Assembly (NCBI GenBank): GCA_905178155.1
Contig: CAJINV010000001.1
Location: 12,635,136-12,699,135, forward strand
Source of the DNA: Amoebophrya sp. A120
Lineage: Eukaryota > Protista > Dinoflagellata
Length of the DNA: 64,000 bases
Reading direction: 5' to 3'
The notes below the pieces were generated by a model. The model was not told where the DNA came from and did no database searches. It saw nothing but the letters and a program-made list of their open reading frames with translations. Every line of letters starts with the position of its first letter. Within the stretch, counting starts at the first letter, position 1. The position numbers and the translations under genes were made by a program. Shown here one piece after another: positions 11 through 61,678 of this stretch.

Positions 11-3000
11 ATGCAGCCCAAGGTGGACGAAAGTATAAACAAAAATCCGAAGCAAGCGCATAATCAGCAGCACACCAGTCCTGCCCGAACGCAAGGCTTT
101 TTGAACACGGCGAAGCAGTTGGAAATCAGAGAAAAGACGCCCTACAGTAAAGGTGGAAAGAACAATGCCAAGGCTGCGAGGCGCATGGGGGAGCAGAGGG
201 TAGGCAGCGGAACGGGAAGCGAATCCATCGTCCGGACTGGATCGTTCGCGACGGCCGTCGATGCCGAATCCGACATGGAACACGAGAGCGCCGAGGAACA
301 CGCGAGCCCGGAACTGGGCAGGAAGGAAAAAAATAACAGTACTAAAATCGTCCCGCCGCAGAAGAAACCCAATAAGAAGCAACCTGCAGTTCTTGGCGAT
401 AGTGGCATTAACAGTAGCAGTGAGGACAGAGACTACTCCTCGAGTAGCAGTCCAGGTAGCGAGAGCTGCAACAGCAAGTCTTACAACAACAGTAGTTCTT
501 CCTACAGTACTAGCGGGAAGAATCGATACAACAATTATGACAATTGTAGCAGCGACGTCTTCAGCAAATCGCACCGGAAGATGACCCGCGCGGAGCAGGC
601 AGCAGAGGCGATGAAGGAGCACCAGGTGGTCACTTGCGCGGACGCCAGTCCGGAGCACGAGGTTTCATCCCGAAGTTTGGTGCCGCCCTGGCAAAAAGAG
701 GAGGGTGAGCCGCTGTGGGAACTGCGGGAGGTATAATTAGCTGCGGAGGTTTCGACGCTTATTCGACTGCTTCTACTTTTCGTGGCCAAGTTCCTTTGGT
801 CGTGGTCCTTATTCGCATCAGGTTACTTTCGCTTTCAGTAATATGTCCGCTTTTGTCTCTACTAAAGAAACTGTCTATGACTTGTCTCAGGTGGTGATCA
901 CGGCTTCGGCTGGGAATAAGCTAGCTTGGATCGCGCGGCCCAAGATCAAAGAGAAAAAGAAGAACCCCGTGAAAATAATCTTGGCAGACCACAGCGTTTT
1001 CAAGGTAATATAAGGCACTTCCGATATTACCAGGATGAGGTGAAACTGAATGAACGACCTACGACCACGGATGTTGAAGAGATTCATATATCAACATGAC
1101 TATGCCTTTGTTTTGGAAAACAAGCTAGAACAAGAAGATCCGGTGAGAAAAAAAATCACTCCTAGGTGCAAGTCGCGGAGCTGATCCAGGGCCGGTGCGC
1201 GCACATGGTCTTGTACCCGAATCCGAAGGAGAAAACCTGGGACGAGAAGGAAGATCGCAAGAAGGCGAGACGCAACGAGAGGTGGAACTCCCGAACCCGT
1301 GGCTCGGGTTCGGATGAACAAGGCACCAGTAATTCGGAACAGGAAAACAAAGCAGCGGAAGAACTTCCCATTGTGGGAGAAGAGCAAGAGGACTACACTG
1401 GAAAAATTCAGTCGCCCATTACTGTGACTGCGGTAAACAAGGAGTCGCAGCAGGTACAATCGCCCGGGGAAGCAGCAGCTGCTGGTGCTGCAGCGAGCTC
1501 TAGTACGCCGGACAAGAAGCTGAAAAAGGATGAAAACTGTGAAGATGATTCCTACACGTACTCGTCTAAAATGTTGGGCGCCCCCACCAGCACGCCGTTG
1601 AAAGAGGAGCCGCCGGTGGCGCTGTTCTACATCGAGGGCCGGTCGGATAACATCCAGAAAGCGCTCGAGGGTTTAGCGCGCTATCGCCAGTGCCACATCG
1701 AGTGCGTTGAGATCACAGAACACGTGTTTCAGCAGATTCGTTGGTCGCGAAGTACTGACATTTAGTACAACCGTTTGAGGCCGTTTCTAGAATAAAGAAA
1801 AATTTAGAATCTGCTAGAATCACATATGGATTGTTCTGTGCGTGGTTGTGTTTCATCGCGGACTTGTAAAATTCTGCCGTGAATCATTCTGCTGTTCGAC
1901 GAAAGAAACAAGTTTATTGTTTAAAATATCACCTCAATCAGTGTCGAACCCGCCGGGGTTTCTGGCCCAAGTGGTTTCGGAGAGCGGTATCGCCCAGGCG
2001 CTTTTGCTGACGCAGGAAGGCACGCGGGCGAGGCGAATCCAGCTGAAGGGCACGCGCGACGAGTTGGACCGAGCGCACAAGTTTATCAAAAAGTCCCTGC
2101 CGGAATTCACTGGCCCCTCGGAACATGCGAGTTCCGGAACGAGCGCCGCGCCTGCCTGGGTGGCGGCTGCACCGCCGGCACCACAAACCGGTTCGTACCG
2201 TGGCTGGAATAATGGGGGACACCACCACAACCAAATGCACTACAACACCGGATCTGCTGGAGCGAATAAGGCAGGGCAACTTGTGCAGTATCACCAAGGT
2301 GCAGCTCCGTGGTCTTCTAGTTCGAGTGGGACCAGCACGACGACCAAGCAACCTACGGCTCGGTCGTCCTCGCTCTCGAAAGTAGACGACGCTGGTGCGA
2401 ACAAGCTTCTCTCTTCCGCTGCCAGTGTTCCCAACAACAAACCCTTCAGTTTCCCAGCGCCCCCACCCGCGGTTCCCACCGCGGCGCCGAGTAGTTGGGG
2501 CAACAGCGAGCGCGAACACTACTGGCTTTCCTTGACGCATACATGGAGCGGGCACACGGCGCGGCTCTCGCTCTACAAGAATCGCTCGTCGCCGCATCGT
2601 ATCAACTGTAAAAATGTCTGGGTCTGGAAGAACCTAAACTTGTGATGCTGTCTCTGGATTCGAAAAAGATTTGTATTGCATGACCAGTAAGAGGAGTAGT
2701 TTTGTGCTCCGCGGAGATGGCATTTGTCATGCGGAATAGGCATGAGGAAGCGCTCCAAAAATCTGTGATGCTACGGCATGCATCACAGACATCATGGGTC
2801 ATGGAAAATATGCATGACAAATCTAGAAATCTTCCAGACCCAGACATTTTTACATTTGATACATCGGCTCTCCGCAGCAGCCGCGAGAGCAGCCATGAAC
2901 GGAGGAACAGCTTCGGGCTCGTTCTACGAACAACCTGGTAGTAGTGCCTTGTACGACAGGCACAACGTTGCAGGTGCCCACGAAAACCAATACTATGACT

Positions 3001-6000
3001 TGCGGAGCAGCGCGCCGACTACAAAGGACTACCCGGCTAGTAAGCAACAAGCGGACCCCCTCCCGTCGAAGCGGAACAGCTCGCTACCGGTCCCGCCTCC
3101 GCCGCCGCTGCGGCGCCAGCTGCGGGACCAGAGCTTTTCGTCGTTCGCCGATGTGGAGGAGTACGATCCGCGGCAGTCATCCTACGCAGACTTCGCGAAG
3201 AAACACTCGTCGTGCAGCTACTCCTCCTTCGCGTCGGCCGACTCCGGCCCGGCTTCGGCGGGCTACCACGAGTTCGTGGAAGGTGTCTCCTGGCACCCTA
3301 CCAGGGGTGCGAGTCAGCAGAGTGGAACTTCTGCGGAGCAGGAAGCGGCGGAGGCGGCGTGGAAAAGTACGCTGGGTGGAGGAGCAGTTGGACCTTCCTC
3401 AGGCACTTCAGGGAACAATCCAAATTCAGGCAGTACAAATGAGAATGCACTGTGGAACAATTACTGGGCCCCCCCGGGGGAGCTCCATCGGCACTTCGAA
3501 GAGATACCGGAGGAGGACGAAAACGATCAGACCCCCGCAATTCTGTATGAAAACACCGCAGAAAACACGCCGCAGAACATCCACGAGATCGCTGCCTTCA
3601 ATCTTCAAAAGGCCACTACGGGACACTTGTTCCCCGGGGTTTTTGCAGCGGCCCCACCCCCGCCACCCATCGCGGACGGCGTCGAACTGCCACCGTTTGA
3701 CCAGCTTACTCCAGAGGAACAAGACGGGATCATTCGGGAAATCTCGGGCATGCAGGGGGTCATTCCCGGAACGTCGGAGATGTTCGACACGCGACTGTTC
3801 CGCATGCTGGCAGATGTTGGAAGTGGTCGCAATAAATCATCTTCCGGAAGATTAGAGCGGCAAACCTCGTCCCAGAAAAATGCGAAGAAAGAGCAGCAGG
3901 ACACGCTGCAACTGCTGGTCTCCGAGACGGGCGAGGCGATGTCGGGCACCGGAGCCATGATTCCGGCGCCGCCGCCAGATTCCGTGATTCCCGCCGACCA
4001 CCAGCTGCATCAGCCCGAACTTCCTTTGAACGCACTGGCGGTGACCGACAACGAGTCCAACTCGCTGCAGATGGCGTCCCGCACGGGTTCCCGAAATGCA
4101 CACTTTCATATTCCAGGAGACGGGACCGGTACGGGCACGCACCGGAGCTTCCACACCGGCGGCGACTCGTTCTACCAGAGCCCCGAGCACGCGGCGCTGC
4201 TGTTTGACCAGACGCCGACTTATCAACTGGACGGAGCCGGGGCGCAGCTGCTGGGTGCTGGAGGACCTGCGGGAACAGCAAGCAGTGCGAACTTGTCGCT
4301 GGATCTCTCCAGTCTGGCGGCGCTCGCTTCGACCAGCTACGGCCAGAGTCTGAACAGTTTAAACCTGGGTTTCCCGGGCGCCGGCGGCGCGATACCCGGG
4401 ATGACACAGCTCCTGCCGCATCCTCTGGCCGGGGCGGTGCAGCCGGTCGGTCTTGGGCCTTCGTCCTCCGCGTTCGTGACTCCGGCCAGCACGATGCTGC
4501 AGCACGGCATATCAAGTGTAAAAATGTCTGGATCTGGAAACTTGTGATGCTGTGTGGCATATCATGAGGAGGCCACAATTGCTGGCTCAGCATGACAAGT
4601 TTCTGAGCTTCTAGGTGTTGCCTATTCTGCATGACAAACTACGTTTCTGCATGACAGAAAAGTCGGGCTCTTTGGTAATGTGCATGACAGATTTAAGAGT
4701 CATGCCAGACAAGCGTGACAAACTTGCATTCTTCCAGACCCAGACATTTTTACATTTGATACGGCATGATGTTCAACAACTGGGCCGCCGCACCGGGTGG
4801 CGTTCCGCCCACTGTACAGCCCGTCGGCACCGCGCCAGGAACGGAGCAGCAGCCCTTTGTGCCCTTTTTCCAGTCGTCGCACTCGCTCCAGCGATACAGC
4901 AACGCGCAGTTTTCATGGCTGGAAGAGCTGCTCGCCCGGTACCCGTCCCGCGCCATGTTGTTCCTCCGCGGGGCCGAGCCCTCGGGGGACTGTCTTAACG
5001 CAATCGTCTACCTGTTGCTCGCGCTGCCGCCCTTCGTCAAGCTCGTCACTGGTCTCTGGGCTGCGCAGAGCTACGCAAAACTGTCGGGGGGCGCGGAGAC
5101 AAGTTTGACTCTTTTTTGATCAGTCGGACGCGTTGCGGTGTGATCGTTGTGATTGATATCTAGTATCTGCACTAGGAAGTACAAGTAGTAGTGCCAGCGC
5201 TACAGTGCAAGGATTGTTCGAGGAGCTCCGTTTTCTACAAGAGCGAAAACCTTTGCAGATACTTCTGCGAGCGCGATCACGGCCCTAGTCAAGGCTTTCG
5301 AGTATTTTACAGACACCAATCCGCCCGCGTGCATGGACCTGAAAAGCGTATTCGCGGACGTGCTTGCGCTGTGGAAAGCCGGGCAGAATGAACCGACAGA
5401 GGAGCAAGGTACAACTGAGTACTTGTTAATTTTGGGGCGCTTATTGCTTTCTGCTTCCTAGGCTTGGGCTTCCTCACTTTTATTTGCTGAAGATGAGAAG
5501 TCTCGTCCTCGTTATATGTCGTAATTGGAACAAATTAACAGACCTCGGCGAGGATGGCCAAAAGTCTTCCCAATCCTCTGCGCGCACCATCGTCGGGCCA
5601 GAGGAGCGTGGCTTGCTTGCGAAGAAGAGCGACAACGGCGAGGAAAACGCAGAGGAGGAAGCAATGGCGGACACACCGTCCAGCGCAACGAATATGCGAT
5701 TTCTGAGCTTTCTCTTGGACCGGTTACATCAGGAATGCGGCAGCTGCGCACACCAGGGTCTCGCTGGTGCGCCGCAGCACCAGGCACCCTCGAGCTTTTT
5801 GGAGCAAGACCTGCAAGCGACGGAGCACGCCATTCACAGCCTTTTCGGGGTTGTGTGCCCCTCCGGTCGGTCCTTTCTCGGGTTGAACATCTTTGTCCCC
5901 ACCATGAACCACGTCACGAACCGCAGTTTTGCAGTTCCCTTCGAACGCTTGCTGCGCCTCGAGATGGGCATGGGTGAGGAAGAGGAAGTACTCCAGGCGC

Positions 6001-9000
6001 CGGCCATGTATGGGAGTGTCAGGATTGAAATAATTGTCAAAGTTGAATATAGTTTGTCATGCATAAAATGCGACACAGAGACTGACTCTATTGCAGAGGA
6101 CGCAAGGGAGGCTGATTCTAGTGCTGGTAAGGGTCAAGAATTGGGTTGCTGACTAGCATGACAGGGAGGAGTCATCTTGCCCTAAATAGCATGACAGACT
6201 TGCTTCAGAGGCCAGGAAAATTTGTCATGCGCCGATTGGAAAGTGTGGGTCCAACTGGTATGGATTTTATGCATTGCAAATTATTTCAACTTTGTTAATT
6301 TCAATCCTGACAGTTCCATACCATGCTTGTGGCCAGTATCCACCGAGAAAATCAAGGAGATCGTAATTTTAGTTTTGCACTTTATTGTGGCGTTTATTTC
6401 CACTTGCACATGAGCAGCAGCCAGCAGGGAGCGTCGTAAAAACAATCATCAAAATTATCCCGATTTAGTTTTATCAGTCTACTACTATCAGGTGTTGCTT
6501 ACGGTACGTACGTACAACTGCCGGAGCAGCTGGGGAGCGCCGTGCGGTACGATTTGTGCGCTGTGTTGGTCGCGGAAGAGGAAGTTGACCAGGTGCCCGC
6601 ACAGCAGGAAAGTATTACCTCCGGTTCGAAGGGCCAGCGGAGCGAGGACTCGGCGTACGACCAGGTTTCCGACAACTCCTCGCAGAAAGCGAACAGTCAC
6701 AAGCGCGCGAAAATCGAGCCTGGCAACTCTCTTGTGATCAACCGGCCGTCCCCGAAGCAGGCGGAAGCCGGCGACGCGCCCACGCGGTCGACGATGGCGG
6801 CGCACTCGTGCAAGAGCAAGATTTATCAAATGCAAAAATGTCTGGGTCTGGAAGAGTCATGCTGTTTTTGCATGACACAGAAGGTCTGGCATGGAACGTC
6901 TAGCATCACAGGTTTCGAGAAGCTTCCGCAATGCCGAATCCGCATGACAAATCCCCCACTTTGGTCACAGAAAGTGGGTAGCTTTTGCTACCTATGCATG
7001 AGAGATTTTTCAGTGTTCTGAAATGCGCATCACGAGTTTGTATTCTTCCAGACCCAGACATATTTGCAATTTATAAGATTTCCGTATCGACCACGACGGG
7101 GAGCCAGAAGACCGGCGGTCGCTGTGAGTTCCACATCAGCCCGGGGAGCTCCATCGGCCGCGAGCGCACGGGAAGCGGAGGGAACGTCAGTACCGGCAGC
7201 AGCAACCAGGGTGTATCAAACGCAAAAATGTCTGGGTCTGGAAGAATGCAACTTGTAACGTGTATTTCAGAACACAGAAAAGTCTCTTATGCCTACGTAG
7301 CAAAAGCTGCCCACTTTCTGTCAGCAAAATAGGGGACTTGTCATGCGGATTCGGCATTGCGGAAGCTTCTCGAAACCTGTGATGCTAGAGCTTCCATGCC
7401 AGACCTTCTGCGTCATGCAAAAACAGCACGACTCTTCCAGACCCAGACGTTTTTACATTTGATAGGGTGTCGCGCGGTACTACCACAGCCAAGCGGGGAC
7501 GACGAACAACGCACCTACAGGGGAGCACGACCAGACCACTTCTTCCAACAATCAGACCTCGAACTCAAACTCCACGTCCGCCGGAACTTCATTTGACGGG
7601 TTGAGTCGCGCTGCACACCCGCTCTCGATGTCCGTAGACACAGCGTTCCCGCGCGGCACTTCTAGTCGTGTAAACGACAGCACGAGTGTCGTTGTGGTGC
7701 GGCAAAACCAACACGGGAACAACCACGGGTCTAATGCAAGCAGCGACTCGGGCGGAGAGACTGTTGATGGTCGGAGGGATCATAATACTTCCTCGTCCAC
7801 CAGCAGTGTTGCGGCAAGCCTGGACGGCACGGGGTCCGAGGGGACGGCCGTTTCCGCGCCCGCGGTGTTGGACGAGACGCACATGAAGGCTGGATTGATG
7901 GATGCGGACCAGGAGTTGGTGAACTACTTGACGCTGCAGAATTATGGGAGTGTCAGGATCGAAATCGACAAAGTCGAAAAATTTGCCATGCGTAAAATGT
8001 AGGGCACTGAAGGCCTGTAATGGGGAGCAGGCAAATGAGACCGATTGTAAGCCTGTGTAGGGGTATGCAATGTGCTGCCAGCGTAGCATGACAGGAGCAG
8101 TCCTCTTTGCCCAAACAGCATCACAAACTGGATTTTGGTGCTCCCGAAATTTGTCATGCGCCACTTGAAAGCTGGGGCTTCAACTGGTATCGATTTTGTG
8201 CATCACAAATGTTTCGCGTATACTCAAGCCATTGTTACCTCCCTAAAATGAAAAATAAGCCAACAAATAGATGACAGGCGGCCGCGCGTATGGACACCCG
8301 AGCTCCCGCTCTCCCTCCGGTCCAGACGCGATCCGAACTACGCTCGGCGGGACACCAATTGCGTTCACTACCAAGATGTGGATGCCTCTCGGAGAGCTGG
8401 AGAAGCGGGCAAGGGGTTGTCCTGATCGTTGTCATGTGATCTGTCATGCCTGCTGCTCCTTTGCATGCCCCGCCGCAGTCTTCCTCTGCGCTTGGCGAAA
8501 GGGCGAGTCTGTTTCTAATACTGGTTCACTAAGCCGAGGCTTTTCCGGCTCTTTGTTGAGGCGAAGTTTTCGCCTCCGAACGTGGCCTATAGTCACTCCC
8601 TGACTGCGACAGCCGGAATTAGTGGAAAGCGGCTCCGAGTGGCAATTCGATAAGAGGCGCGTAAACAGAAGACGCTCCTCTCCAAATCCGAACTTCCGAT
8701 AAGGACCAGCGACTGCACGGCTCGCCTTGGTCCCTTGCTACGGCCGCGATTCTATGGATACGAGCATAAGGGAAAGCGGAGAGGGGAAACAGTGCCAATC
8801 CCTGCACACAGCTCGCCTTGCTCCCATGACATTGCGGCTGTTTCTCAGCTCCTGACTACGCCGCTGCGCGACTACTTAATCGACATGTGGTATCTTGGTA
8901 AGAAATAGGTAAGTTATTATCTCATAGTGTTGCTTCTGCGTGAGTCTCTACCAAAAAATATTAATGACCTCGATTTAGCTCTGGAATAAACTCTTCAAAT

Positions 9001-11851
9001 AAAATATAAATCAAAGTTCTCGCGTCCCCCCCAGTCCCAATTCACAGAAAGGGCCTCAAGTTTTCAAATCCCACAAATATGTCTTGTAGTCACACTGCGT
9101 GGAAGCTCTAAAACGCCCTTGCTGTAGATCTTCGAGATCTTCATACGGCTTGGGTCTGTCAGCTTCCATATATTAAAAAAAAAAATTTCATAGTATAGCA
9201 GGTCGCTGGGGGTCTGTGTGATTCAGTCACGGACTTCCTGTCTGCTTCTATTACAGTTGTGAGCGCAAAGTATGGTTGAAAAATATATAAGTGCCCGGGG
9301 ATGAAGAAATACTCGCGATGTTTTCGCGGTTCTGACCCTATGCCGTTCCAGCACCTGCGGAGGCTTGCCTCCAAAGCTACGCTGGACAATGGCAATGTCG
9401 GTGCGGTTGTTTTAGCATCACAAATGTTTCGATTTTGTCAATTTCGATTCTGACACTTCCATAAGAATCTGTTCAAGGTCGCTTCGGACAGCAACCTCGC
9501 CGAGGGGTACGGCCCGGCGCGGTCGGGGCTGTTTCCCTTCCCCGAAGACGACAACCCGGGCGATGGTATGCACTGCCAAATGCGGTCTTTGTCGGCGGAC
9601 CAAGCGAACAGTACCGGAGCGCATATTGCGAGCAGCTTTGAAACCACCCCTGAGCCGGAGGTGCGGTCGGAAACCAGCGAGGAGCACTTCGCGGCATTCA
9701 CGACGGCAGACTGCTCGCAGAACGTGCAGATGGGAAAGTCCCCGGAGCTGAATTACAGTTCAGCTGCTAAAGGTGCACGGCGGGGGCCAGGGGGCTCTCC
9801 CGGCTGGGTCGCGCAGTGCGAAAAGAACAAGCGTGAAGAAGAATTCCTTGTTGACGGCAACAACGGCAAGCGACCTGCCTCCGCGGCGGACAACATTACG
9901 ACGTCCAACACAGCCGGCCGCGGAGGTTTCGTGCTGAAGATGTCGAGCGGCTTCTCGTCGATCCGGGACCGCAAGGGAACTGTCGACACGGAGTTTTCGG
10001 CTGGGGACATGACCCCCAGTTCCGCTTTCCCAATCCCTCCCGCGTTCAGCTTCCGCAGCGTGTCCAGCCAGAGCGCCGAGGCGGCGTCCGGCAGCCGCGA
10101 CCCGTTCCCGGACGTCAGCGGTGCTTACCTGTTCCGCTCGGTCACCGACGGGGCGATGCCCGACGAGAACTCCGCCGTCGCTTTCTGGACCGCCCCCTCG
10201 GTCGAGGAACAAATAACCGCCCGTACCGGCTCGGCCGGCGCGGCTTTCATGACGCACGCGGTCGCGGCCCGGAGTCGCAAGGCCGCCGCGTCCAGCGCGA
10301 ATGCAAACACGGGGAGCGGCTGGAACAACTCTAGTACCATCGAGGGGGGTATGGATTGCAAATATCCCTGGATGTCTGGAAGAATACGAACTTGTGATGC
10401 GCATTTTAGAACACAGAACAATCTCTCATGCACGGGCAGCAAAAGCTGCCCACTTGCTGTCACCAAAATGGGGGACTTCTCATGCGGGTTCGGCATTGCG
10501 GAAGCTTCTCGAAACCTGTGATGCTAGAGTTTCCATGCCAGCCCTTCTGTGTCATGCAAAAACAGCATGAACCTTCCAGACCCAGACACTTTTGCATTTG
10601 ATAGGGGGTCCTCAGGATTCAGCTCCCTCTACCGGGATGAGCAGCGCGCACGGGCTATCAAATGCAAAAATGTCTGGATCTGGAAGATTACCAGTTTTGT
10701 TATGCATATTTTGAATGACCCATGATGTGTGTGATGCATGCCCTAGCGTCACAGATCTTTAGAGGACTTTGTGATGCCTCTGCCGCATGAGAAATGCCTT
10801 CTCCGCGTAGCACAAACTGGAGTCCTCTTGCTAGTTCTGCAATACCAATTTTTTCAGATTCCTGAGACAGCATTGCAAATTTAGAATCTTCCAGACCCAG
10901 ACATATTTGCATTTGATACGGACCGTCCAGCGGCCAATCGGCGTCGATGTCTTCCAGTGGCCAGTCCAGCAGTATTACAGTGAAAAGTGCCCCCCACCCC
11001 CAAAGTTGCAAAAATTTGTGATGCGAAGTTTCCAAATAAAACCTTTTTGTCATGCATGAAAGGAATATCATGAATCTTTCTGATGCAGATTCTAGTGTTG
11101 TTTCGCATCGCTTGCATGACAAGCACCGCTCTTGCTGGGATCTTTTGCAATACAAATTTTTGCTATTCACGATCGGAAATCTGTGATGCTGATACATGCA
11201 AGAGGGCGAATGTTTCATTTGGAAAGGTTTGCAATACAGATGCTTTCAAGTTCGGGGGTGGGGGCATTTTTCATTGTAATAAGCAGCAGCTCCTGTTCGC
11301 AGACCGGAGGTGGCAGTAAAACTACTATCAAAGCCGGAATAAATGACCAGGACCACGAAGATCAGGGTCGAGGCGGCCTGACGAGGAAAACGATTGGCAA
11401 CAACGCCTCGAGCACCTCGACCTTTTCCACAACCGCAGGCTCTCAGTTGACCTCGCGTACGCCAACCGGCGGGTCGTCACAGACGCTGCCGTCAAGCTGC
11501 ACAGGATCATCCGCGGCGACACAGCGGATGAGCACAGGGAATCTTCAAAACGGCAGTTCGGTAACTACCTCAGGCTCCAACAACTCGCTCGCGGCCCACG
11601 TTATTCAGGAAAACAACAAGCAATCGGCTCATCAAGCCACATTTCACACATCGTCTTCGGAGTCCAGTCTATTTCCGGTGCATGAAGAGATGCTGCCGGA
11701 CAGTAGTTCCTACGCAGTGTACGTGAGCCACGGAGGCTTGTGGTTTTACTGCAAGGATCACGTCGTCCGACCAACTACAATCGCCGAAGTCTTGCGTCGG
11801 CGCGACGCTGTGCAGGCCTTAGCGTACTTTTTTTGCCGTTTGCTTCGTTGA
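11..11851 (+). CDS. Giant multi-exon protein: low-complexity N-terminus, KH-like segments and a split, probably inactive ubiquitin-specific protease (C19/USP-like) domain; may start upstream of the window
   Basis: ORFs join through GT-AG introns (731-890, 1005-1165, ~1740-1941, 6363-6491, and two less certain ones near 5100-5540) and 9 introners. USP-like boxes occur in order: GDCLNAIVYLLLALPPF, FLSFLLDRLHQEC, APAMLVASIHR, YDLCAVLV, SSYAVYVSHGGLWFYCKDHVV..AYFFCR. KH-like segments: FYIEGRSDNIQKALEGL and SESGIAQ..RIQLKGTRDELDRAHKFI. Confidence 0.6.
2600..2861. mobile_element. Introner E1, TIR family A (TATCAAATGYAAAAATGTCTGGGTCTGGAAG)
   Basis: ~31-bp TIRs; TSD CATCG at 2595-2599 and 2862-2866; removal gives SSPH-R-LSAAAA, joining ORFs 1842 and 2778. 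Confidence 0.95.
4510..4761. mobile_element. Introner E2, family A (near-identical to E15)
   Basis: TIRs; TSD CGGCA; removal gives LQHG-MMFNNW. Confidence 0.95.
6009..6320. mobile_element. Introner E3, TIR family B (TATGGGAGTGTCAGGATTGAAA)
   Basis: TIRs; TSD CCATG; removal gives QAPAM-LVASIHR. Confidence 0.92.
6824..7075. mobile_element. Introner E4, family A (reverse orientation of E5/E7/E20 subtype)
   Basis: TIRs; TSD AGATT; removal gives KSKI-SVSTTT. Confidence 0.95.
7214..7464. mobile_element. Introner E5, family A
   Basis: TIRs; TSD GGGTG; removal gives SNQG-V-ARYYHS, in frame with ORF 7601. Confidence 0.95.
7943..9463. mobile_element. Introner E6, family B, enlarged by a nested 1.2-kb insertion
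   Basis: ~49-bp TIRs; TSD AGAAT at 7938-7942 and 9464-9468; removal gives LTLQN-LFKVASD, in frame with ORF 9568; body resembles E3. Confidence 0.92.
8217..9414. mobile_element. Nested insertion of unknown class inside E6
   Basis: Flanked by a perfect 17-bp direct repeat GCATCACAAATGTTTCG (8200-8216, 9415-9431); removal leaves a 306-bp element similar to the 312-bp E3. Confidence 0.8.
10350..10603. mobile_element. Introner E7, family A with degenerate left TIR
   Basis: TSD GGGGG; body similar to E5/E20; removal gives TIEG-G-PQDSAP. Confidence 0.9.
10656..10918. mobile_element. Introner E8, family A (reverse orientation of E1 subtype)
   Basis: TIRs; imperfect TSD CGGGC/CGGAC; removal gives SAHG-P-SSGQS. 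Confidence 0.92.
10973..11281. mobile_element. Introner E9, TIR family C (TATTACAGTGAAAAGTGCCCCC)
   Basis: TIRs; TSD AGCAG; removal joins QSS-S-SSCSQTGG, in frame with ORF 11132. Confidence 0.9.
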
Positions 11852-35326: not shown

Positions 35327-37422
35327 ATGGCGATGATGAAACAGAGCTGCGGGCCAGCGGCAACGCTATCAAATGTAAAAATGTCTGGGTCTGGAAAATT
35401 GCAACTTGTAATGCTAATTCTGGATCGTGCCAAAATCTGTCCTGCATGAATGCCAAAAGCTGTCCACTTTTGACCAAGTTGAGAGGAAGTTTCTCATGCA
35501 GAATAGGCATGATAGGGATCTCACAGAATCTGTCATGTTAGGCCCTGCATTACAGAGATCATGGGTCATGAGAAATATGCATGACAAATCTTGCATTCTT
35601 CCAGACCCAGACATTTTTGCACTTGATAAACGCTGATGCTGAACGATGCTCTGAACAAAATTGTGTACCGGGACGGAATATCAAATGTAAAAATGTCTGG
35701 GTCTGGAAACTTGTGATGCTGTGTGGCGTATGGTATCATGAGGAGGCGGCAATTGCTGGCTCAGCATGACAAGTTTCTGAGCTTCTAGGTGTTGCCTATT
35801 CTGCATGACAAACTACGTTTCTGCATGACAGAAAAGTGGGGCTCTTTGGTAATGTGCATGACAGATTTAAGAGTCATGCCAGACAAGCATGACAAACCTG
35901 GCAATCTTCCAGACCCAGACATTTTTACATTTGATACGGAAGCAAGGGCTTGAAGCTGGAGAAGGAAAAAGGATTGGTCCCCATGGGTGCGGAGTCGCCG
36001 TTCGGCAACTTTCCACCAGGGTGAGATAATTGATGAAAAATACCATTTCTGACACTTTCAGGCAGCCTCGTTGCTGCGAAAGAGGAATCTTTATACATGC
36101 ATCGCTGCAAAAGAATCTCTGTGAAAATCCATGGGAGGACATCAAGCGAAAAAAAAATCCAAACAGGTACGGCTCAACGAAGCACAAGGTCAGGGCTGTG
36201 GGCGAGAAGGCACAGAAGTTTATCGCCACTACCGACGGAAACAAGCCGCCGCCGCGTGCAGGCGCGACCGACCGACGCCCGGTTGCCGCGACTGAGTTCC
36301 GCCGATTCTACGACCGAGGTGACTTGCCAATCCAGATCTTCCACGGTGCGGCCGGCGGCAAAATCGCCTGGAAGGTATACCTTGCGTTTTTTGTTGTAGC
36401 TGTTTTTATTGATGCAAGCGATGGGGTGCGGACGTAGAGTATAGGATTCCAATTTTTTTAACCCGAGATAGAAGCAAGTAGACATTTCAAGCGTAAACTA
36501 TCAGGTCGAAATCGAGAAATTGGACTACCACCACTACCTCCCGATCTTCTTTGACGGCCTCCGTGAGCGGGAAGATCCCTACCGATTTCTGGCGGTACAA
36601 GGCGTCTACGACATGCTCGAGAAGGGCGGATCGAAGATCCTGCCGGTGGTGCCGCAATTGATTATCCCAATCAAGACCGCACTAAACACGCGTGTTCCGG
36701 AACTCGTGTGCACCACAATCAAAGTCTTGATCCAGCTGGTTTTGTCTGCCGACATGATTGGAGAGGCGTTAGTGCCGTAAGATTTTCGCTTGTTTTCGCT
36801 TTTTGGCTGCTGTAGTTTATTCCCCGTGCTGGTTCATGAAAAAGAAAAAGAAAACTGAGACTAACATGGTGCCACCGCAGCTGTTTTGATGCTGACGCCG
36901 CGAATAAGTACGTGAACCGTTCTTCGGCACTTCCGAAAAACAGGTACTACCGTCAGATTTTGCCGATCTTCAACATCTTCAAGATGTCCACGAAGAACCA
37001 GGGGGACCTGATGGACTACAGCCAGCGCAAGCGGCTCAACCTCGGCGAGCTGGTGAACGAGGCGTTGGAGGTATTTGAAACCCACGGTGGCGAGGTATCA
37101 AATGCAAATATGTCTGGGTCTGGAAGAATGCAGGAGTTTGCGATGCAGATTTTGCATGACCCATGAGGTCTATGATGCATGCCCTTGCATCAGAGATTTT
37201 GCAACGGTTTTCTGATGCTTATACCGCATGAGAAATGCCCTCTCCGCGTAGCACAAACTGCGCCTCTTTTGCTGTTATGCAGCACAGATTTTATGTAGAT
37301 TCCCAAAGTAGCATGACAAGTTGCATTCTTCCAGACCCAGACACTTTTGCAGTTGATACGAGGACGCTTTTATCAACATCAAGTACATGATCCCCACCTA
37401 CGAATCTTGCGTGTTGTCGTAA
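35327..37422 (+). CDS. PACRG: PACRG, copy 2 (tandem paralog)
   Basis: [20 protein letters not shown]..; same PACRG motifs as copy 1; GT-AG introns 36021-36166, 36375-36504 and 36777-36943, plus introners E14, E15 and E16. Confidence 0.95.
35367..35628. mobile_element. Introner E14, family A (same subtype as E18)
   Basis: TIRs; TSD AACGC; removal gives [12 protein letters not shown], matching paralog 1. Confidence 0.96.
35679..35936. mobile_element. Introner E15, family A (near-identical to E2)
   Basis: TIRs; TSD CGGAA; removal gives YRDG-S-KGL, matching paralog 1 YRDGSRGL. Confidence 0.96.
37096..37358. mobile_element. Introner E16, family A; readable as GT-AG intron 37095-37362
   Basis: TIRs; TSD CGAGG; removal gives [12 protein letters not shown]. 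Confidence 0.96.
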
Positions 37423-40074: not shown

Positions 40075-40105
<31 letters not shown>

Positions 40106-46500: not shown

Positions 46501-48586
46501 CGACCCACTTTCAGAAGGCCGGATCACCACCGCCGTGGTGATTCTGCAGTTCATTCTCTACCTCTTGTGGCTGTTCCTGTTGAACTTCTACATTGTGCTG
46601 GTGGAGGGCGGATGGCTGGCGTGGGGCGGCCAGGGGGACCAGTACACGTCGCTGGAGCGAACGCAGCAGAAAACGGTGGTCGTTGCGTGGTCAACGTTGC
46701 TCGGCTACATTGCGCTGTTTTCCATCATCCACGCCTTTTCCTCCCTGCAGACCGTGACGAACCATCTGGGTTTGTCCTTCGCGCTTTGTTTCGTCTGTCC
46801 TGTGGTGCTGGTCACGTTGTGGGAGGCGGCGCGGTACTGCCGCGCCAACATGACGCAGGCGGCGAAAAACGGAATCATCAACACGATCCTGAACCGCGCC
46901 AATCCCACCCCGGTCTTGAACGACACCGCGCTGCAGGGCAGTTCGTTTGAGGAGCAGGTGGAGTGGGAAAACCAGGTCAGCGATTTGCAAGCGGAAAACC
47001 TCGGCGTGGCTACCTCCTTCCTGTTAGTTCAGTCGATCCAATTCGCGGTGGTAGGGAAATTGCCTGACTTCCACGGCTATCTTGTGCAAAAGTATCGTAC
47101 TCGTTGTAATGGCAGGCATGCATTACAAGCCTAACTTTCTACCTTGTTCAGCATGACAAATCGCATTTTTGTTCTTCGGGAAATTTGTGATGCGATTTAC
47201 ACTAGTACCATAATTTTGCAATGCATAACGGGCAGCAAAAACCGCAGGAGGGGAAAGTGTACTTTCAACCGAGTCCGCAGCACATCCCGGTGATGACTGC
47301 CATTGTGATCGGCACCGCGTTGGTTGCGGATTTACTCGTCAGGTTTTTACACCGGAGGTTGAAGGAAGTGCCTCCCTTCAGCTTCCAGGCGCGGCTGTTC
47401 CATCTCGTGATTGTCATCCTGTGCATGAGCTTCGCCTGGGAGCTCTTACTCGTTCTTCGGTGGTTCGTCGCCGAATCGTGCGACAATATTTCCAATAACA
47501 TGATTTTCAAAATCATCGTCGCGACCTTTGTGACCATCTTCGGCATGCTCATGATCGTGATCCTGGACGCGATCGAGGATTGGCTCCGGCCTGTGAGGCA
47601 AATTCTCTTTGTCGAAACGTCCGTCGACCCGCCGGGGCAAACCCAAATCACCCGGCCGGGCCAGGAGACGGCCAGCTCCGTGGACGATAGCATGGCGCCA
47701 CTCGGCAGTCCGCAACTGACAACCCAGAATTTGGAAAAAATGATTCTCTGTGTCGGCATCGTCGTTGGGTTCGCGTGGAATCACGCCTTCGAGGTACAGA
47801 TATGTTGTACTTTTTATTGAGGTTTAGGTTTGATGATGTCCTTATATTCGAGTCACCGGCGGTGTAATATCAAAGAAAGAGACTCCCTCACACTCACTCT
47901 TGAAAATCGTGTGTTTTTTGTAATCCTCTTCTCAATTTTTCCTAGGTCGGCATGGAGGCCATTAACCAGGAGGTGGACGGGCAATTTGGCACTGTGTGGG
48001 GAGCCAAGCACAACATCCACATCATGATGATGATCATCCGTATGAATTGCAAAAATGTCTGGGTCTGGAAGATTGGAACTTGTCATGCTAAAGTCAAATC
48101 ATGCAAAAATCTGTGTTGCATGACTGCCAAAAGCTGTCCTCTTTCGACCAAGCTGGGAGGGAGTTTCTCATGCAGGATAGGCATGACAGAGACCTCATAG
48201 ACTCCGTCATGCTAGGTCCTGCATTCCGAACCTCATGGGGCATGGAAAATATGCATGAGAAGTTTGCATTCTTCCAGACCCAGACATGTTTGCAGTTCAT
48301 AATCCGCGGCCTGCTGATCGCCTTAGTTTTGCCAGCGTGGCGATACCACATCCTGCCGCAGGTGGTCAAACACCGGGACGAATACCTGGCCGGGCGGGTA
48401 CTGGAGGACATCCAGGAGGAATCCGTTGCCGCCCAGCTAATCGGCGACGACGCGGCCGAGCGGTTCGAGCTGTGGAAGCAGCAAAAGCAGGAAAAACCGA
48501 TCTGGAAGTGCATTTGGGCCTGCTACTTCTTCAGCATCGCAGTCTTCATCGGCTTTGTGGGAACGCTGTACTTGAACTCGCCATGA
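43590..48586 (+). CDS. Multi-pass membrane protein with a large hydrophilic insertion; function unknown
   Basis: Many hydrophobic helices at N- and C-terminal ends; introns 43821-43984 and ~47794-47945, plus E17 and E18. Confidence 0.7.
47078..47227. mobile_element. Introner E17, TIR family H (short, degenerate)
   Basis: Imperfect ~35-bp TIRs; TSD ACGGC/ACGGG; removal gives PDFHG-QQKPQE; contains several shared motifs. Confidence 0.8.
48041..48301. mobile_element. Introner E18, family A
   Basis: TIRs (variant TATGAA..TTCATA); TSD ATCCG; removal gives MII-R-GLLIAL. Confidence 0.95.
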
Positions 48587-49839: not shown

Positions 49840-52800
49840 ATGCCTCGGGACAACATCGTAATCCTGCTCGGCCCCCCGGGGTCCGGGAAGGGAACGGTTT
49901 CTCCCGCGATCGTCGATGCGCTCGGAATCCCGCAGCTGTCGACCGGTGACATGCTCCGCGCCGCCGTCGCCGCGGGGACCGAAACGGGGCTGAGAGCGAA
50001 GGATCTCATGGCACAAGGAGCATTGGTGCCGGACGAGTTGGTCATCGGTACAGTTTTTTTACCAACATTTTGGTTTCTCTTTCTGTTCAACGTGGCACAA
50101 GTGGCAAGATCGATAAATGCTTCTAATGTAACGCTTCGCCGCTACTTGAGGTGATGATAGATGACCACAAAAATGAACATTGTAGCACAGAGGTATTACC
50201 CAACATTTTTTACATATCCATCGTTCCGACCCTTTCACGACTACAACAGCGATCATCCAGGAGCGCATTCAGGAGGCGGACTGCGCGGAAGGTTTTCTGC
50301 TCGACGGCTTTCCCCGCACGGTGGCCCAGGCGCAGGCACTGGACGCGGTTTTGTCGAAGGAGGGCGAGATGGTTACCAAGGTGGTGGAATTGAACGTCCC
50401 GGATGAGGTTTTGACCGACCGCATTTGCGGGCGGTGGATCCACAAGGCGAGCGGCCGCAGTTACCACGTCAAAAACAAGCCCCCCAAGATATGACCCGCT
50501 CAGACGTTACAATCTCAACTGTTACAATAGAATGTGGATTTTGTGATGCAAGAAGTGCATGATCTAGCCAACTCGCACAGGATTGCGCATGACAAGTTCT
50601 AAAGTGCCGACCCGCACTAGAATCTCGCGAAACTTGTAATGCGAAAAGCGCAATACTGTGTGCGTTCCTCATGCTCTTCATGCAAGGCTAATTCCAAATT
50701 CTAGTGTAACGTTTGAGATTGTAACACCTGAGCAGGTTATACCAGAGCTACGACGGCAGCAGCGAGCCCACGGCAGAGAACATGTATCTATCTTTTCTTT
50801 GGTCGTGTGATATTATGTGGTGAGAACTTTCTTTTGTGCATACTGCTGCACATAGTCTGTCAGCGTCAAAGCTACTACTCAATCACCCCGACGATCGTTT
50901 CTTGGTTTCTGATGATAGAAGCCAGGGTCGTGCTGTCGAGAAAATAAGCCGCCAAAACCCCTATAAACCAGGCTCGACGACGAGACCGGCGAGGCTTTGT
51001 ACCAGCGGGCGGACGATACCAAGGACGCGCTCCCCAAGCGGTTGGAGGGCTACCACAACGAAACCGAGCCGATTCTGGAGTACTACGGTGAGAACGTGTG
51101 CGTGCGCGTGGACTGCAACCGCGACATGGACGCCATCACGCAGGAGATTCTGTCCATCCTGGTCTTGAACAAGGGTGACACGGGGGTCACCACGGCTATG
51201 AAGGACATGCTGATGGCCTTGACACACTTGTCCGAACTCATGGAGCACATGCCGGAGGACATCCAGCAGTGGTGCAACTCCGACGAATTCGATGACGCGA
51301 TCAACGAATACTTTGACGTATATTTGAAGGACTAGACATCACAAGTTTTGTTTTAGGGGTTTAGGATTTAGGGTTCATCGTTCCGTAACCGTAGAAGAGA
51401 CAATGAAAGAAAGCAAAACTGGATGCCACAGTAAGCAAGTAAAAAAAATATTTCACATCCTCGTTCTTTTTTCATCTCCCCAGGGCCTGGACACCAACAA
51501 GTCGGGCAGCTTGGAGGCGGACGAACTGTATGAGCTAGCTGGGGAGTCCCTCGACGGCATGCTCCGCATTCAGAACGAGGGAGACGATCCCTTCTTCCAG
51601 CCGAAGGTGGGCCCCGCGGAGATGCGCCGCTTCATGGACATCTTCGACCAAGACAAGAACGGCGCGCTGGACCGGGACGAGTTCCGGGACTTCATCAAAT
51701 TTTCCATCTGCCGCTCCTGGATCGAGGACCAGTATCTGGAGGAGGGCTACTACAACGAGAGCGAAACACCGCTCATGAACAGCTCCGAGGAGGCGGAAGT
51801 TGCAGAAGGTATTTTTGTAGTAAATAGCGACAGTTTATTATCTTGGATGGAGGAGTTGATTTTGATTTTGATTGGATCATGACTTGACGACATACTGCAT
51901 TCTTGCAGAATAACGCTAGCAGGAAGCGTATTTCTATTTTCTATTTGAAAAGCGACTTCACCAACAACCATTGATCAGGCGAACAAGTTATGGACGAAAC
52001 CCTTGCCAAGCTTGAGGAGGGCCCGAACAACGTGAACTTCTTGCTCCGGCAGCTGAGCCCGGAAATGCGGGCGGAGATCGAGTCAGAAGAGTTCGCACAC
52101 ATGCGGCGATTGGAATTCCAGAGCCTGGATGACGACGAGTCCGGCACTCTGGAAATCAACGAGCTTTTCCCCCTCATCGAAGCCATTGCCGACGTGCACC
52201 CCTGGAGCATCACGTATTCATATTGCGACTTTCAGTACCTCTGTGGTTGACAGACTCTTTTACTTATCTATCATCTTCTGGCCAAAGATAACAGTAGGAG
52301 GAGGCGGTGCCTCCGGTTTGAGTTACATACAACAATGTTTTGTTCTGTTGATTTCCTTGTTTCTTCGGTCCTCATCATTTGGAAATCGACATTTAGTTTT
52401 ATGAACGTGAACCTTTTTTTTTCTGCACAGCTACGAGCACTGCGCGCGGTTTCTGGAGCTCTTTGACGAGAACGGGGATGGTGTGCTGCAATTTGGCGAG
52501 TACTTGAAGCTGGTGCAGTACGTGATCGCCATCGCGACTGTGGAATACGAGAACGAGAACAAGGCGGCCAACGCCGGCGCCGCGGAGAAGCTGGCTCAGA
52601 TGGAGGAAGAAAACGCGCGCCTGAAATCTAAGCTGGACAAGACCAACCAGGAAAAGTGCGAACTGCAGCGACAACTGAACAAAACGCTGAAGGGCGCCAT
52701 CAAGGAGAGCAACCTGGAGATGCAGAAGGAAAAGAAGTGGAGAACCAAGCTCGAGGGAAAATACAGCGTATTGATTCATCGGATAAAGTTTTCATGTTGA

Positions 52801-54040: not shown

Positions 54041-55920
54041 ACACTATCAAGATTTTACATAGAAAGCAGCCATCCAGGCGTGCATCGACAGGAAGATTCA
54101 TTTTGCTCGCTGCCGATTCACAAGATCTATCACATAAGCACGTTTGCAAGCGAGCGGTCAGTCTCACGTTCGTACCGCGATCACAAGTTCCATACTTGAA
54201 TTTTTATTGCGTTTATGTGTGATGTGTTTGTTTGCGGATGAAGTACTAGTAGGAGCTGACACTGGAAACAAAATTTTGACGCTAAAAACCAAAGACAGTC
54301 ACGCCGAGTCTGTAGTTCAGTTTTTTTTTTTTTTGAAAATGTATGACATGTGGTTCGGCCTTTTCCGCCACGAGTATGAAATAATTCTAGACATGTTTAT
54401 GATTCAGTAATCTAACTCTCGACAACCTAAAAAGTTGTGCGTATTCGTAAAATTGTAAAGAATCATCTGGAAGAAAAGTCGCGACACGCTAGAGCAAGAA
54501 GCAGCAGCATACTGTCAATGGTGTCCTCAAACCTCTTGAATGATTCTGTATTGTGTACGTATTTTGCTGTTGCTCTACAGTCGCTTTTTCTGTGCCTTTC
54601 TACGTGTGCATTTTGCTGTTGACGACGGATTAGTTTTCTGGCCCATTGCGAGGATTTTCCTAATTCGCTTCATGCGAGAAAATTCGCCGCCGGTTTTTGA
54701 TAAGTCGTTTTCACAGGCGCTTCTTGCGCTTGCCAAAAGAAAGGAAAACAAAGAATATGCGCACAAAGGTGTTGCAGGTGCTCCATGTGGATGAAGGATA
54801 TCTTGTTTACTACTCAATGATCTATTCATCTGGTGTCAGGTGCTAGAAGTTAGAGACCGTAGTAAGTTGTTGATGAAGTCAAGCACAAGCTTCTAGTTTT
54901 GAACTCACCTTTTTCCTCGACGAATGCGAACTGCGTACCGGTGTGTGACATCTGTGGCGTTTGCGCTGGGTTTCACTGGACGAGGTTCGTATTGGAATCT
55001 TTGGCGAATTTCACTTACACCGTGAATGATACTGCGCAAACTGGAGGCTTGATTTTCATCATCTTCGGGCTGCTGGCTTTTCCCGCTGAGACTAGGTAGA
55101 TTGAGTTTTTACTGACGAATATCCAACAAAAAAAGATTGTGAGCACGTAACTTTGTTGCCAATGGTTGCGTCTATGATGCGGGTCTTGCATGGTAGGGTC
55201 CATTCAGGGAGTGCGTTTTCACGTACTATCTGCGCATGAGTCATGCCATGCAGATTTGTAATGCCGTTCCGCAAAGATATAAAAAAACAAAGTTACATCT
55301 ACAATGTTTTTTTCTTGCATAACGAATGACCCGTGGTCATATCCGCCGGTTGCTGACGAAGGTCGAACGACTTAGACATGACGGTTTGCAGACTGAAAAA
55401 CGAACACAATACTGCTGAAGAGAAAGTAATTGTAGCTAAAAACTAGAAATACAGTTACAGAGATAGCTCCTGCTTTTCACACTTTTCGTTCTACCGGTTT
55501 CCATTTCTGTTTCATTCTTTCCAACGCTTTCACTTATTCATGAAATAAACGTGTACATTTAAATTCATTTCAACTATGATTTCACAGCAGATGCGAAGAT
55601 TTCTGCTGCGTTAATTTTTTTTTATTGAGCCGCCTCACTTAGCCTTGAACAAAGACCAAGCACCTGCCTTATTTTACGATCGAGTAGCACAGCAGGCACT
55701 TGTTGTTTCTTGGTGTCTGTTGTGCTGCCGTGGTAGTTTCACGCGAGTGTACATATCAGTCTCTTCCTGCTAGCATTAAGTGAGTAGTAGGCCTTTGATT
55801 TACTTAAAAGAAGCGAACACTTGCTGGCTGCTATTCCCACTTCGAGTCCCCTTTCTTCGACCGAGTCCGCCACTTGTGGGCATCGTCAAGGAGAAAACGG
55901 TGGAAGAAAAGTTTTCCGAG

Positions 55921-58900: not shown

Positions 58901-61678
58901 GGTTGCAGTTGGAAAATTTTCACTTGATGGCGGCCGGCAAGACCGACCCCGTGACGGTGGCCCGTGCGGAGCTGCTCGCGAACGCGGTTGCAAGCGCAAA
59001 TGGGGGGCCAAGCGCGCGTCGAAAGCCGTTCTACGAGCAGTGGTCGAAAAATCATGCTTTTGCCGCGGCGCACCAGGCGGTGAATGCGGCCGCGGGCCTG
59101 AATCTGCAGAACGCGGCGGGGACAGCGGCAGCAGCATCGGCGCTGACCATGCCGGGCGTAGCAGCCGGTCATCTGGGCGGTTCCGTCAGTGCGGCGGCCG
59201 CTGCGGGCGCAGCCGCGGCGGCGGCCGGCGCGGGGAATCCGTTCGGTGCGAGTTCCGCGAATCCCTACGCAACCCCGGCCGGCATGGCGGCCCTGAATCG
59301 CGCGGCGGCAGCCGGGCAGCTGTGCGCAGCCGCGGCGGCGGGACAAACCCCGTTGGGTTCTTCCCCCTACAATGCCTTCGCAGCGGCCGCTGCGGCCGCG
59401 GCACGGACTCCGCATCCGAGCACCACTCCCGCGAACGCGTTTGCGTCGATTTTGTCTCAACAACCTCCTGCTGGTTCAGCCGCCTCCGCCCAATCCAGTG
59501 CCAACCCCTACGCTTCCTTCAGTGCCGCCTCTCCGCTGTCCGCAACCAATCCCTACGGCCAGCATGCATCCGCTTTGGCGGGTTTTCAACCGCCTGGCGC
59601 GGCAGGAGCAGGCGCCGCCGCGTCCTTCTCCGGGCTGGCCGGTGCCGCCACGGACCCGTTGACCGGTGTGCCGCTGTTTACTGGGGCAACCGATCCACTG
59701 ACCGGAGTGCCAACGGGGACTGAACACGACTACACCGCCAATCCGTGGGCCGCTGCCGCGGGTATTCCGGGCTTCGATGCAACGGGCGCTGCAGGGGCGG
59801 ACCAGTGGGCGCACCTGGACATGAGTATGTGGAATCCGGTACTATGTCTTGTCTTAATCATATCACTTCGTTCATGATCGCACCGCTTCTTTCCAGAAAG
59901 TTGTTTAGCGTGGATAAATCCATTCGGGTTCTTCGCATATGTCCATAATGACAATCCGAAACCTACGAGGAAAACAAGACGACGAACTCTACACCACAGA
60001 CCGCCGGCTTCGACCTGCTATTCAATCCGTTTTTGAATCCAGTCTCTACTACGGAACACTATGGCTTTTCGTCAACGAGCGACGGGACTCAAAACATTGA
60101 CTTCGCATCGCTGGATGCCACTGCTGCGGCAGCTGTCGGCTTAAGTACTCCTTTAGGGAAGATTTTCATTTTGTGTAAACTTACTTATTTTGAATTTGAT
60201 GAGGTGAGTTCTTTTCGAGGAAGACGAAAGCGAAGCGTCATTTGTTGGTGCAGGGTTCAGGAAAGAAAAAGCGACGATGGATTATGCCGGGAGTCGAAAG
60301 GAATTCAAAAACAAAATCATCTCAGCCGACGCCGCTAGCGGCCTCCCGGACGTTGCTGGCACAGCTGGTCAAGATTCTCGATTTGGGGCGAAAACAGCGG
60401 CAGGAAATCAAGCGTTTGCATTCAATAAGGTACAGCTTCTACCTGCAGCTACGAGGCTGGAACAAGTGGGATGCTGTTGAGAATGAGGATCATGATTTAT
60501 TTCTTCGTATGGCATCAAAGAAGCCAAAAATTCGGTAGTTGATGCAGTAGAAAATCGGCACGACTTGTTCTTCAATTGATCCAGGTGGCTTCTGGGCTCT
60601 TCAATCCGACGTCCAAGCTAGAGAATTCGTGCGACAAGAAAACGACGCTGACGGGCTCTCCCGTATCAAATGTAAAAATGTCTGGGTCTGGAAGATTCCA
60701 AACTTGTAATGCGCATTTTAGAACACAGAAAAATCTCTCATGCATAGGTAGCAAAAGCTGCCCACTTTCTGTCACCAAAGTGGGGGATTTCTCATGCGGG
60801 TGCGGCATTGCGGAAGCTTCTCGAAACCTGTGATGCTAGAGCTTCCATGCCAGACCTTCTGTGTCATGCAAAAACCGCATGACTCTTCCAGACCCAGACA
60901 TTTTTGCATTTGATATCCCGATACGGTGAACAACTGCAGTCTGTTGTCCAGTCCCGACCGGAGCGGATCGCCGGAGAGTAGCGTGTACGGGGCGGGGTCC
61001 AGCATCGACGGCAACGGCATCGCGCCCACGCCGCCCCACGGCAGCGGTGTGGGAATGTTAAACCAGCCCGCCGGCGCGGGTAGTTCTACTTTGGCGACCG
61101 GGCGGAACCAGTCCGCTGCTACAACTGCGCTCAGTGCGGCGGGGGCTACTGGCACGCCCAATATGGCTTCCATCGGAGCAGGTAGTTCTTCCACTACAGC
61201 GACGTCGAGTCATGATCCAGCTGTAGCCGCTACTTCGGTAACCAGCAGGGTGTCGAGTGCAACAACGTCGCACTCCGGCACCACTGCTGCTACTGCAGGA
61301 TCAAGTACTAGTGCAAATCCCACCACCCCAGCGAAGGTGATACCACCCGCCCCGGCGCAGCAACAGCTCTCGTCGGGACTTCTGCACAACGTGACTTCTG
61401 CGCCCGTGACTGGGAATAATGCCATGCAAACCCCAGGGGGAAGTGTCGGAATGGTCGGCACTTCTTCCGCTCTGGACCTAGCCAGGCAACCGAGCCTGAC
61501 GATGCAGGACCCGGGTGTGCCAGTGTGGTCCGCGTCGGCAGGCTCGTTTCCAGTACTGCTTGGTACCACGCCAGGGTTGCTTGGTGCCGCGCCGCAGCTC
61601 GCTTTTCCGGACGGTTCGGTGGGACCCTACGATCATGTCTATGGAACGTATGGTGCAGGGTCGCTGGGTGGAGCGTGA
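55921..61678 (+). CDS. Large low-complexity protein with a cold-shock domain
   Basis: GQIRMFNPTKGWGFI..DIFLHTKHI plus VRFDLDFSNERPQALNV; multiple exons including E20; start and some junctions are uncertain. Confidence 0.7.
60664..60915. mobile_element. Introner E20, family A
   Basis: TIRs; TSD TCCCG; removal gives TGSP-D-TVNNC. Confidence 0.95.

Follow-up and report, generated by a model that had tools for sequence, protein, structure and literature searches.

A conserved, regularly spaced internal motif in the introners of Amoebophrya sp. A120: a putative DNA-binding site

We propose that a short motif repeated inside the introners of the dinoflagellate Amoebophrya sp. A120 is a conserved, regularly spaced, putative DNA-binding site of one shared transposase or transposase partner, so that a single enzyme would copy all of the families that carry it. 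We hold this to be probable, though well short of established. The elements lie in a stretch of 64,000 nucleotides (contig CAJINV010000001.1, positions 12,635,136 to 12,699,135; the window, whose own numbering is used below). Because they have ends made of TAT, seven variable bases and AAA, and are flanked by a 5-bp direct repeat, they are already known: they are the A120 introners of Farhat et al. (PMC7789003), and it is the internal motif that is the question. The introners reported in A120 number about 30,000 and are sorted into 1,954 families, with no identified mobiliser and with their spread and removal stated to be open (PMC7789003); here and below, published work is cited from the searched text of the papers. 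The motif array is a real and apparently undescribed feature of these known elements, of a kind familiar from transposons with terminal inverted repeats (TIRs).

Presence of the motif and diversity of its carriers

The window has 62 copies of the motif in its strict form, GCATBACAR, where 3.5 would be expected (maximum 10 in 100 shuffles). A scan for inverted ends and a 5-bp direct repeat, with one mismatch permitted in TAT, returned 19 intact elements of 150-312 bp (all TAT...ATA, 4,718 bp combined). Two further elements are broken up by inserts (7943-9463 and 32733-34196). The intact elements hold 51 strict sites, compared with 0.53 in per-element shuffles (maximum 3 of 200), and the element-derived parts of the interrupted ones hold 8 more, giving 59. 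Only 3 lie in the other window DNA (about 57.6 kb), one of them within 19.3 kb of low-GC intron or intergenic tiles; single copies at 43862 and 63743, in apparent ordinary introns, are the sole ones beyond elements and inserts. Three GT-AG introns joined in RNA contigs lack even a relaxed site (one mismatch permitted), two more have one each, and none of the five has a strict site. A de novo count over one representative from each of nine groups ranked CATGACA, CATTACA and CATCACA as the most enriched 7-mers. The consensus form is GCAWNACAR, frequently followed by RTY. Unconstrained motif discovery by expectation maximisation ended in a diffuse motif, which we discarded.

What a first-pass annotation had claimed from the letters alone is borne out in part. 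Its five sites in the first element, E1, are present (2640-2648, 2724-2732 and 2763-2771 on the - strand; 2780-2788 and 2812-2820 on the + strand), both orientations are used (26 + and 25 - among strict sites in elements), and the motif occurs in every one of the nine blast-defined window groups. The copy number of about 4-8 per element is too high for strict sites (1-6) and is approached only when one mismatch is permitted (2-8, median 6, against 0.56 by chance). The nine families stand as blast groups within the window and become 7-9 once metagenome copies are added, since E11, E15 and E18 then fall into one single-linkage group. E12 and E19, in our own numbering, had been called unalignable with E1; both align with it, as members of family A, which comprises 11 of the 19 window elements, mutually alignable at 65-94% identity. 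The remaining eight show no mutual alignment within the window. As to the alternatives raised in that annotation, the motif is at chance levels in the rest of the window, and mutual alignability within the window holds for the 11 members of family A.

A larger sample came from metagenome contigs scanned with a three-motif pattern, which gave 133 loci, 126 of them from a single assembly, in which the window's families recur at 72-97% identity; the 7 loci from other assemblies have no TAT...ATA element and were left out of the counts. The flanks yielded 297 elements, forming 11 single-linkage groups jointly with the window elements. The TAT start was imposed by the finder in these loci; the tip logo across families gives A at 0.81-0.89 at positions 11-13, matching TAT-N7-AAA. 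Among the 198 elements that do not match the search pattern, and are thus unselected, there are 553 strict sites, and 194 of the elements have at least one; the density of 11.3/kb compares with 0.28/kb across 269 kb of masked flanks. The 198 include a group N candidate with no motif and a weak TIR, a probable false call that was kept out of the spacing counts. With TIRs trimmed and up to six consensi used per group, local alignment scores between groups have medians of 18-32, against 17-24 for a motif-preserving null and 30-246 within groups. Because the between-group scores barely exceed that null, the motif is shared by bodies that can no longer be aligned.

Further afield, viral contigs matched neither the three-motif pattern nor the TIR of family A. 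In prokaryote genomes a spacing-aware pattern matched 9 times; no match had both a convincing TIR and a target-site duplication (TSD), and we took them as chance or tandem repeats. A long match of metagenome locus L095 to 35414-35936 was rejected as an orthologous locus, being two adjacent elements with an unrelated spacer.

Spacing and conservation of the motif

Spacing was computed on 105 subfamily consensi, 100 of them testable for pairs. Adjacent same-strand sites lie 31-33 bp apart in 93 of 208 cases, and a same-strand pair at this distance occurs in 73 of the 100 consensi (null mean 13, maximum 21) and in 9 of 10 families, the shortest family, K, pairing at 35. Opposite-strand neighbours peak at 16-17, 34 and 48 bp, and weak sites occupy the 16-bp positions between strong ones. 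The array is also placed relative to the ends: the outermost site most frequently reads TTGTNATGC inward (142 of 206 ends), with its centre at one of two preferred distances from the tip, 36-37 bp or 44-48 bp, which differ by roughly one helical turn. Over all same-strand distances the Rayleigh statistic peaks at 10.4 bp (R 0.42, compared with 0.14-0.15 at 9.5 and 11.5).

Among unselected copies of 12 subfamilies, the core shows 1.7% shared and 2.1% single-copy changes, compared with 9.2% and 5.0% in the body; the variable fifth base of the motif changes like the body. Judged from these sequence comparisons, the motif is functional. Shared changes in the two largest subfamilies amount to 0% in the core against 8.5% in the body, and 5.5% against 19.4%. 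Their single-copy core changes are close to the body rate, with ratios of 0.79 for subfamily A0, in which just the three sites not covered by the search pattern were counted, and 1.06 for the other. Near-body single-copy change together with depleted shared change is what would be expected if the filter acts at copying. Tree parsimony gives 12 core changes on internal branches where 90 were expected (0.13), and the pattern suggests that the filter is strongest on lineages that were later copied onward. Since the bodies do not align between families while the motif is conserved and its spacing shared, the common binding site suggested in the first-pass annotation is supported, as a putative one. 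The transposase half of its suggestion fits best, and a mark for removal is disfavoured at the RNA level, as set out below.

Neighbouring elements are clustered: 96 of 190 gaps are at most 175 bp, against 46 under the null, and 81 of the 96 join different families. The members of a cluster are 30-170 bp apart (E4-E5, E6-E7-E8 and E12-E13 in the window). Such cross-family clustering would be in keeping with a factor, or with open target sites, that the families have in common, and could also reflect exon regions that tolerate insertion.

Five elements hold unique inserts (window 8200-9431 and 32997-34156; metagenome loci L009 3374-3738, L002 632-1465 and L018 3223-4370). Three inserts are bordered by a 13-19 bp direct repeat bearing all, or 8 of 9, motif bases, and in the other two the break adjoins a motif site (by eye). 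Two of the inserts resemble retroposed sequence in their tails, which are A-rich in one and a trinucleotide repeat in the other; both window inserts are without a match elsewhere in the compared sequences. Other insertions may thus be drawn preferentially to the motif, as far as so small a number can indicate.

Window elements and their removal from RNA

The elements of the window are as follows (coordinates, element, group, TSD where given, sites and RNA):

2600..2861, E1, family A, TSD CATCG, five strict sites; not bridged in RNA contigs
4510..4761, E2, family A, TSD CGGCA, 5 strict sites; RNA contig skips 257 nt (element plus one TSD)
6009..6320, E3, family B, TSD CCATG, 4 strict sites; RNA skip 317 nt
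6824..7075, E4, family A, + strand sites only; RNA skip 257 nt
7214..7464, E5, family A, - strand sites only, of E4's subfamily in reversed orientation; RNA skip 256 nt
7943..9463, interrupted family B element, TSD AGAAT, unique insert of about 1.2 kb; RNA skip 1,526 nt
10350..10603, E6, family A, - strand sites only; RNA skip 259 nt
10656..10918, E7, family A, TSD copies mismatch at base 4; RNA joint 10654 to 10923
10973..11281, E8, family C, 4 strict sites; RNA skip 314 nt
25936..26214, E9, family D, + strand sites only; removal inferred, RNA contig pieces beginning at 26214
28847..29015, E10, family E, TSD copies mismatch at base 5; RNA pieces stop at 28841 in two runs
32022..32236, E11, group F/I; tandem paralog gene near 36530 lacks an insertion at the same site (by eye)
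32733..34196, interrupted family D element, TSD TTTGG, unique insert of about 1.1 kb with an A-rich tail
35367..35628, E12, family A, 3 strict sites
35679..35936, E13, family A, 6 strict sites
37096..37358, E14, family A, 1 strict and 7 relaxed sites
47078..47227, E15, group G, 150 bp, 3 strict sites
48041..48301, E16, family A
50490..50741, E17, family H, 3 strict sites
55120..55321, E18, group F/I, 1 strict site
60664..60915, E19, family A

The 5-bp TSD is exact in 15 of the 19 intact elements and has one mismatch in 4, in a scan for 5-bp repeats only; the published border of A120 introners is a direct repeat of 3-5 nt (PMC7789003). The window elements resemble published A120 introners in host, TAT-N7-AAA inverted repeat, 5-bp direct repeat and non-canonical removal (PMC7789003; PMC12130899), and element lengths match listed A120 families (about 107, 149, 209, 252-262, 278, 305 and 320 bp). 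The elements are non-coding, repeated and 110-350 bp long; in run X1, summed depth over element-containing bins reached hundreds to thousands of times that of the flanks (about 28), a figure that is not a copy number. The insert of 7943..9463 is bordered by a 17-bp direct repeat (8200 and 9415) and that of 32733..34196 by a 19-bp repeat (32997 and 34138), each with the motif inside; other genomic copies of the latter element are without the insert (joint 33009 to 34162).

Between 2000 and 11600, contigs in which GT-AG introns are joined as well skip 8 of 9 elements, each time the element and 5 nt more. Runs X3, X4 and X6 are of one sample, and the RNA status of the runs was guessed by the tool. 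The 1,526-nt skip appears in three RNA runs, all of one sample; run X5 showed no joints in 2000-11600, and run X1 reads through an intron that X3 and X5 skip. E4, with sites on the + strand only, and E5 and E6, with sites on the - strand only, keep this one-sidedness under the relaxed pattern, and all three are precisely cut. That the motif is recognised in single-stranded RNA is therefore unlikely, unless very degenerate sites suffice. Because these one-strand elements and the copy with a 1.2-kb insert are all cut precisely, we consider a removal mark at the RNA level unlikely.

The two mismatched TSDs place the cut. RNA from E7 retains base 4 of the left TSD (10651-10923), and RNA pieces ending at 28841 imply that E10 (28842-29020) retains base 5 of the right one; the cut therefore lies between TSD bases 4 and 5, with a donor of N-T-A-T. 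This agrees with the published donor counts of A120 fam2 (GT 2611, CT 1800, AT 1526 and TT 744 of 9,716; PMC12130899 sd07). The same donor resembles, by eye, the GTAT and GTAC starts common in the window's ordinary introns. The left and right inner arms of an element are closer to each other than to those of other subfamilies (for example 0.78 against 0.57, and 0.76 against 0.50), a likeness that is partly built in, as the finder demanded arm similarity; it fits a pairing role or conversion between arms.

A 527-amino-acid stretch encoded at 22349-23929 is 100% identical to an Amoebophrya sp. A120 protein and 54% identical to an A25 protein. Profile hits in the window are an NSUN2-type RNA methyltransferase, a 3'-5' exonuclease domain and a cold-shock domain (21388-24229, 26216-29272 and 56575-58761), in genes that all seem to lie on the + strand. 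Tandem paralogous genes at 31430-34290 and 35330-37420, which we take to be PACRG-like, carry introners at differing positions and so provide empty-site controls for E11 and E14.

What reads the motif, and what it means

What might bind such an array? Under our proposal, a multimeric protein would contact the array along a single face of the helix, its sites being in phase with the tip, and the families would be non-autonomous derivatives of one transposon lineage or users of its enzyme. The family-specific inner inverted repeat would serve mainly as a pairing stem, and removal from RNA would depend on the ends and not on a strand-specific reading of the motif.

Several observations weigh against this proposal. 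Constraint extends to terminal branches, where 66 core changes compare with 207 expected (0.32); body counts there are probably inflated by poorly resolved trees, and these branches take in unsampled copying. Single-copy ratios in four smaller subfamilies are 0.28-0.41 in three and 0.68 in the fourth, and A0 itself comes to about 0.47 in columns without shared variants (0.009 against 0.019), so some selection may act after insertion. The spacing of 39 bp in family A (15 cases) is off helical phase; the periodicity of adjacent sites is broad (R 0.38-0.51 over 9.5-13 bp) and ruled by one peak; and family A supplies 32 of the 105 consensi, so the spacing counts are not independent. The masked background holds 81 strict sites against 17 expected, including 7 same-strand pairs spaced 32-33 bp apart around which no TIR could be recognised. 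Lastly, no transposase or integrase Pfam family was found in 137 stop-to-stop open reading frames (ORFs) of at least 200 amino acids from the window and metagenome loci, a search that spans about 0.47 Mb of a genome of about 115 Mb (under 1%), and Farhat et al. report no A120 transposase and argue against general mobilisation by transposases (PMC7789003).

Pair distances in the background number 11 at 30-34 bp, compared with 1.5 per 5-bp bin elsewhere. The seven TIR-less pairs, by metagenome locus, are:

L016, 2351-2383
L053, 5144-5177
L034, 4849-4881
L034, 1444-1477
L069, 1648-1680
L009, 4076-4109
L060, 3097-3130

Several of them sit between GTAY and AG, as in apparent short introns (from sequence only). 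These pairs may be what is left of old elements, some of which may have turned into ordinary introns, or they may be bound by a host factor.

They are one basis for the alternative that a sequence-specific DNA-binding protein of the host, a chromatin or transcription factor, binds the motif pair, so that elements bearing it would spread through a licence to be copied or through the removal machinery that the factor recruits during transcription. We regard this as rather unlikely, yet serious enough to be kept, because of the background pairs and the terminal-branch constraint. It also draws on the missing transposase, in the 137 ORFs and in Farhat et al. (PMC7789003) alike, and on the three inserts that duplicate a motif copy, whereby interrupted copies retain a site near the end. 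Against it, strict sites are scarce in the 57.6 kb outside elements and absent from the five GT-AG introns, and the pairs in the background could be elements in decay. Constraint, moreover, reaches its highest level on inherited lineages (0.13 against 0.32), and a fixed distance from the tip is more easily explained by a protein that also cuts there. Quite improbable, in our judgement, is action in RNA, whether the motif is a protein-bound splicing signal or supplies short stems by which the intron folds before it is removed. The motif bases are predicted to be paired more than the body (0.73 against 0.60), with a second motif copy as partner for 0.37, hairpins could form between opposite-strand copies spaced 16 nt apart, and A120 is without a detectable U1 small nuclear RNA (PMC7789003). 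The sites nevertheless show no strand bias, E4 on the one hand and E5 and E6 on the other are each removed precisely, the sequence itself is kept across families beyond complementarity, and the interrupted copy of 1.5 kb is removed as precisely as one of 250 nt. Very improbable indeed is a motif without function, left over from common descent or produced by mutation alone: family A makes up more than half of the window elements, tip and TSD length are common to all families, and between-family alignment scores slightly exceed the null, but within subfamilies the core changes far less than the body and the spacing persists across bodies past alignment. As regards function this reading is largely refuted; common ancestry is still compatible with the explanation we favour.

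The reading we consider most likely takes the motifs as subterminal sites at which one shared mobilising protein would bind DNA, and its precedent among known systems is the hAT transposon Hermes. There, short repeated sites in both orientations lie inside the TIR and must keep rigid positions, both among themselves and with respect to the TIR (PMC10368747). The likeness of the A120 array to such rigidly spaced subterminal repeats is one of anatomy. The Hermes sites are of 4 bp, in one element with a known enzyme, whereas the A120 site is of 9 bp and occurs in families with differing inner TIRs. A120 also differs from hAT elements in its TSD of 5 bp, with RNA skips of element plus 5, and no hAT transposase with a BED domain is among the 137 ORFs, which cover under 1% of the genome. 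The usual hAT TSD is 8 bp, and subgroups with 5-6 bp exist. The sole candidate class of mobiliser that we found in the literature is A120 fam38, an integrase-related TIR element, which resembles the present elements in its 5-bp TSD and TA/TA termini (PMC12130899 sd07) and differs in its length of 808-810 bp and its Copia/Gypsy-related ORFs, with Copia-related homology; the text describes it as without standard Ginger termini and TSDs (PMC12130899), and our comparison is with that description. MITE-derived introns (from miniature inverted-repeat transposable elements) of Fritillaria and euglenids are likewise bounded by TIR and TSD and have non-GT-AG ends, but the signals described are at the ends, and the text searched has no internal spaced array (PMC11282704). 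The searched text of PMC7789003 and PMC12130899, figures excluded, nowhere describes an internal motif common to the families, or how such a motif is spaced or conserved, and motif strings are absent from the supplement text searched; nor does that of PMC9860276, PMC11282704 and PMC12005148 mention an internal motif or spacing, in a survey that excluded theses and subscription papers. A literal literature search for GCATGACA gave nothing related by title among the matches listed.

A more far-reaching picture, which we offer as speculation and think unlikely as a whole, is that one protein reads a 16/32-bp lattice of GCAWNACAR in thousands of introners that are otherwise unrelated, mobilises all of them and steers new insertions beside old ones of whatever family; it would be partly co-opted by the host to mark them on DNA for removal at N-TAT donors, in a cell that lacks a detectable U1, and its site pairs would persist in the ordinary introns that descend from introners.

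A conserved site at fixed spacing in nearly all families would cut introner diversity to one recognition code. The motif pair would in turn provide a DNA bait for catching the binding protein, a signature for the autonomous element, and a marker with which to trace old elements into ordinary introns.

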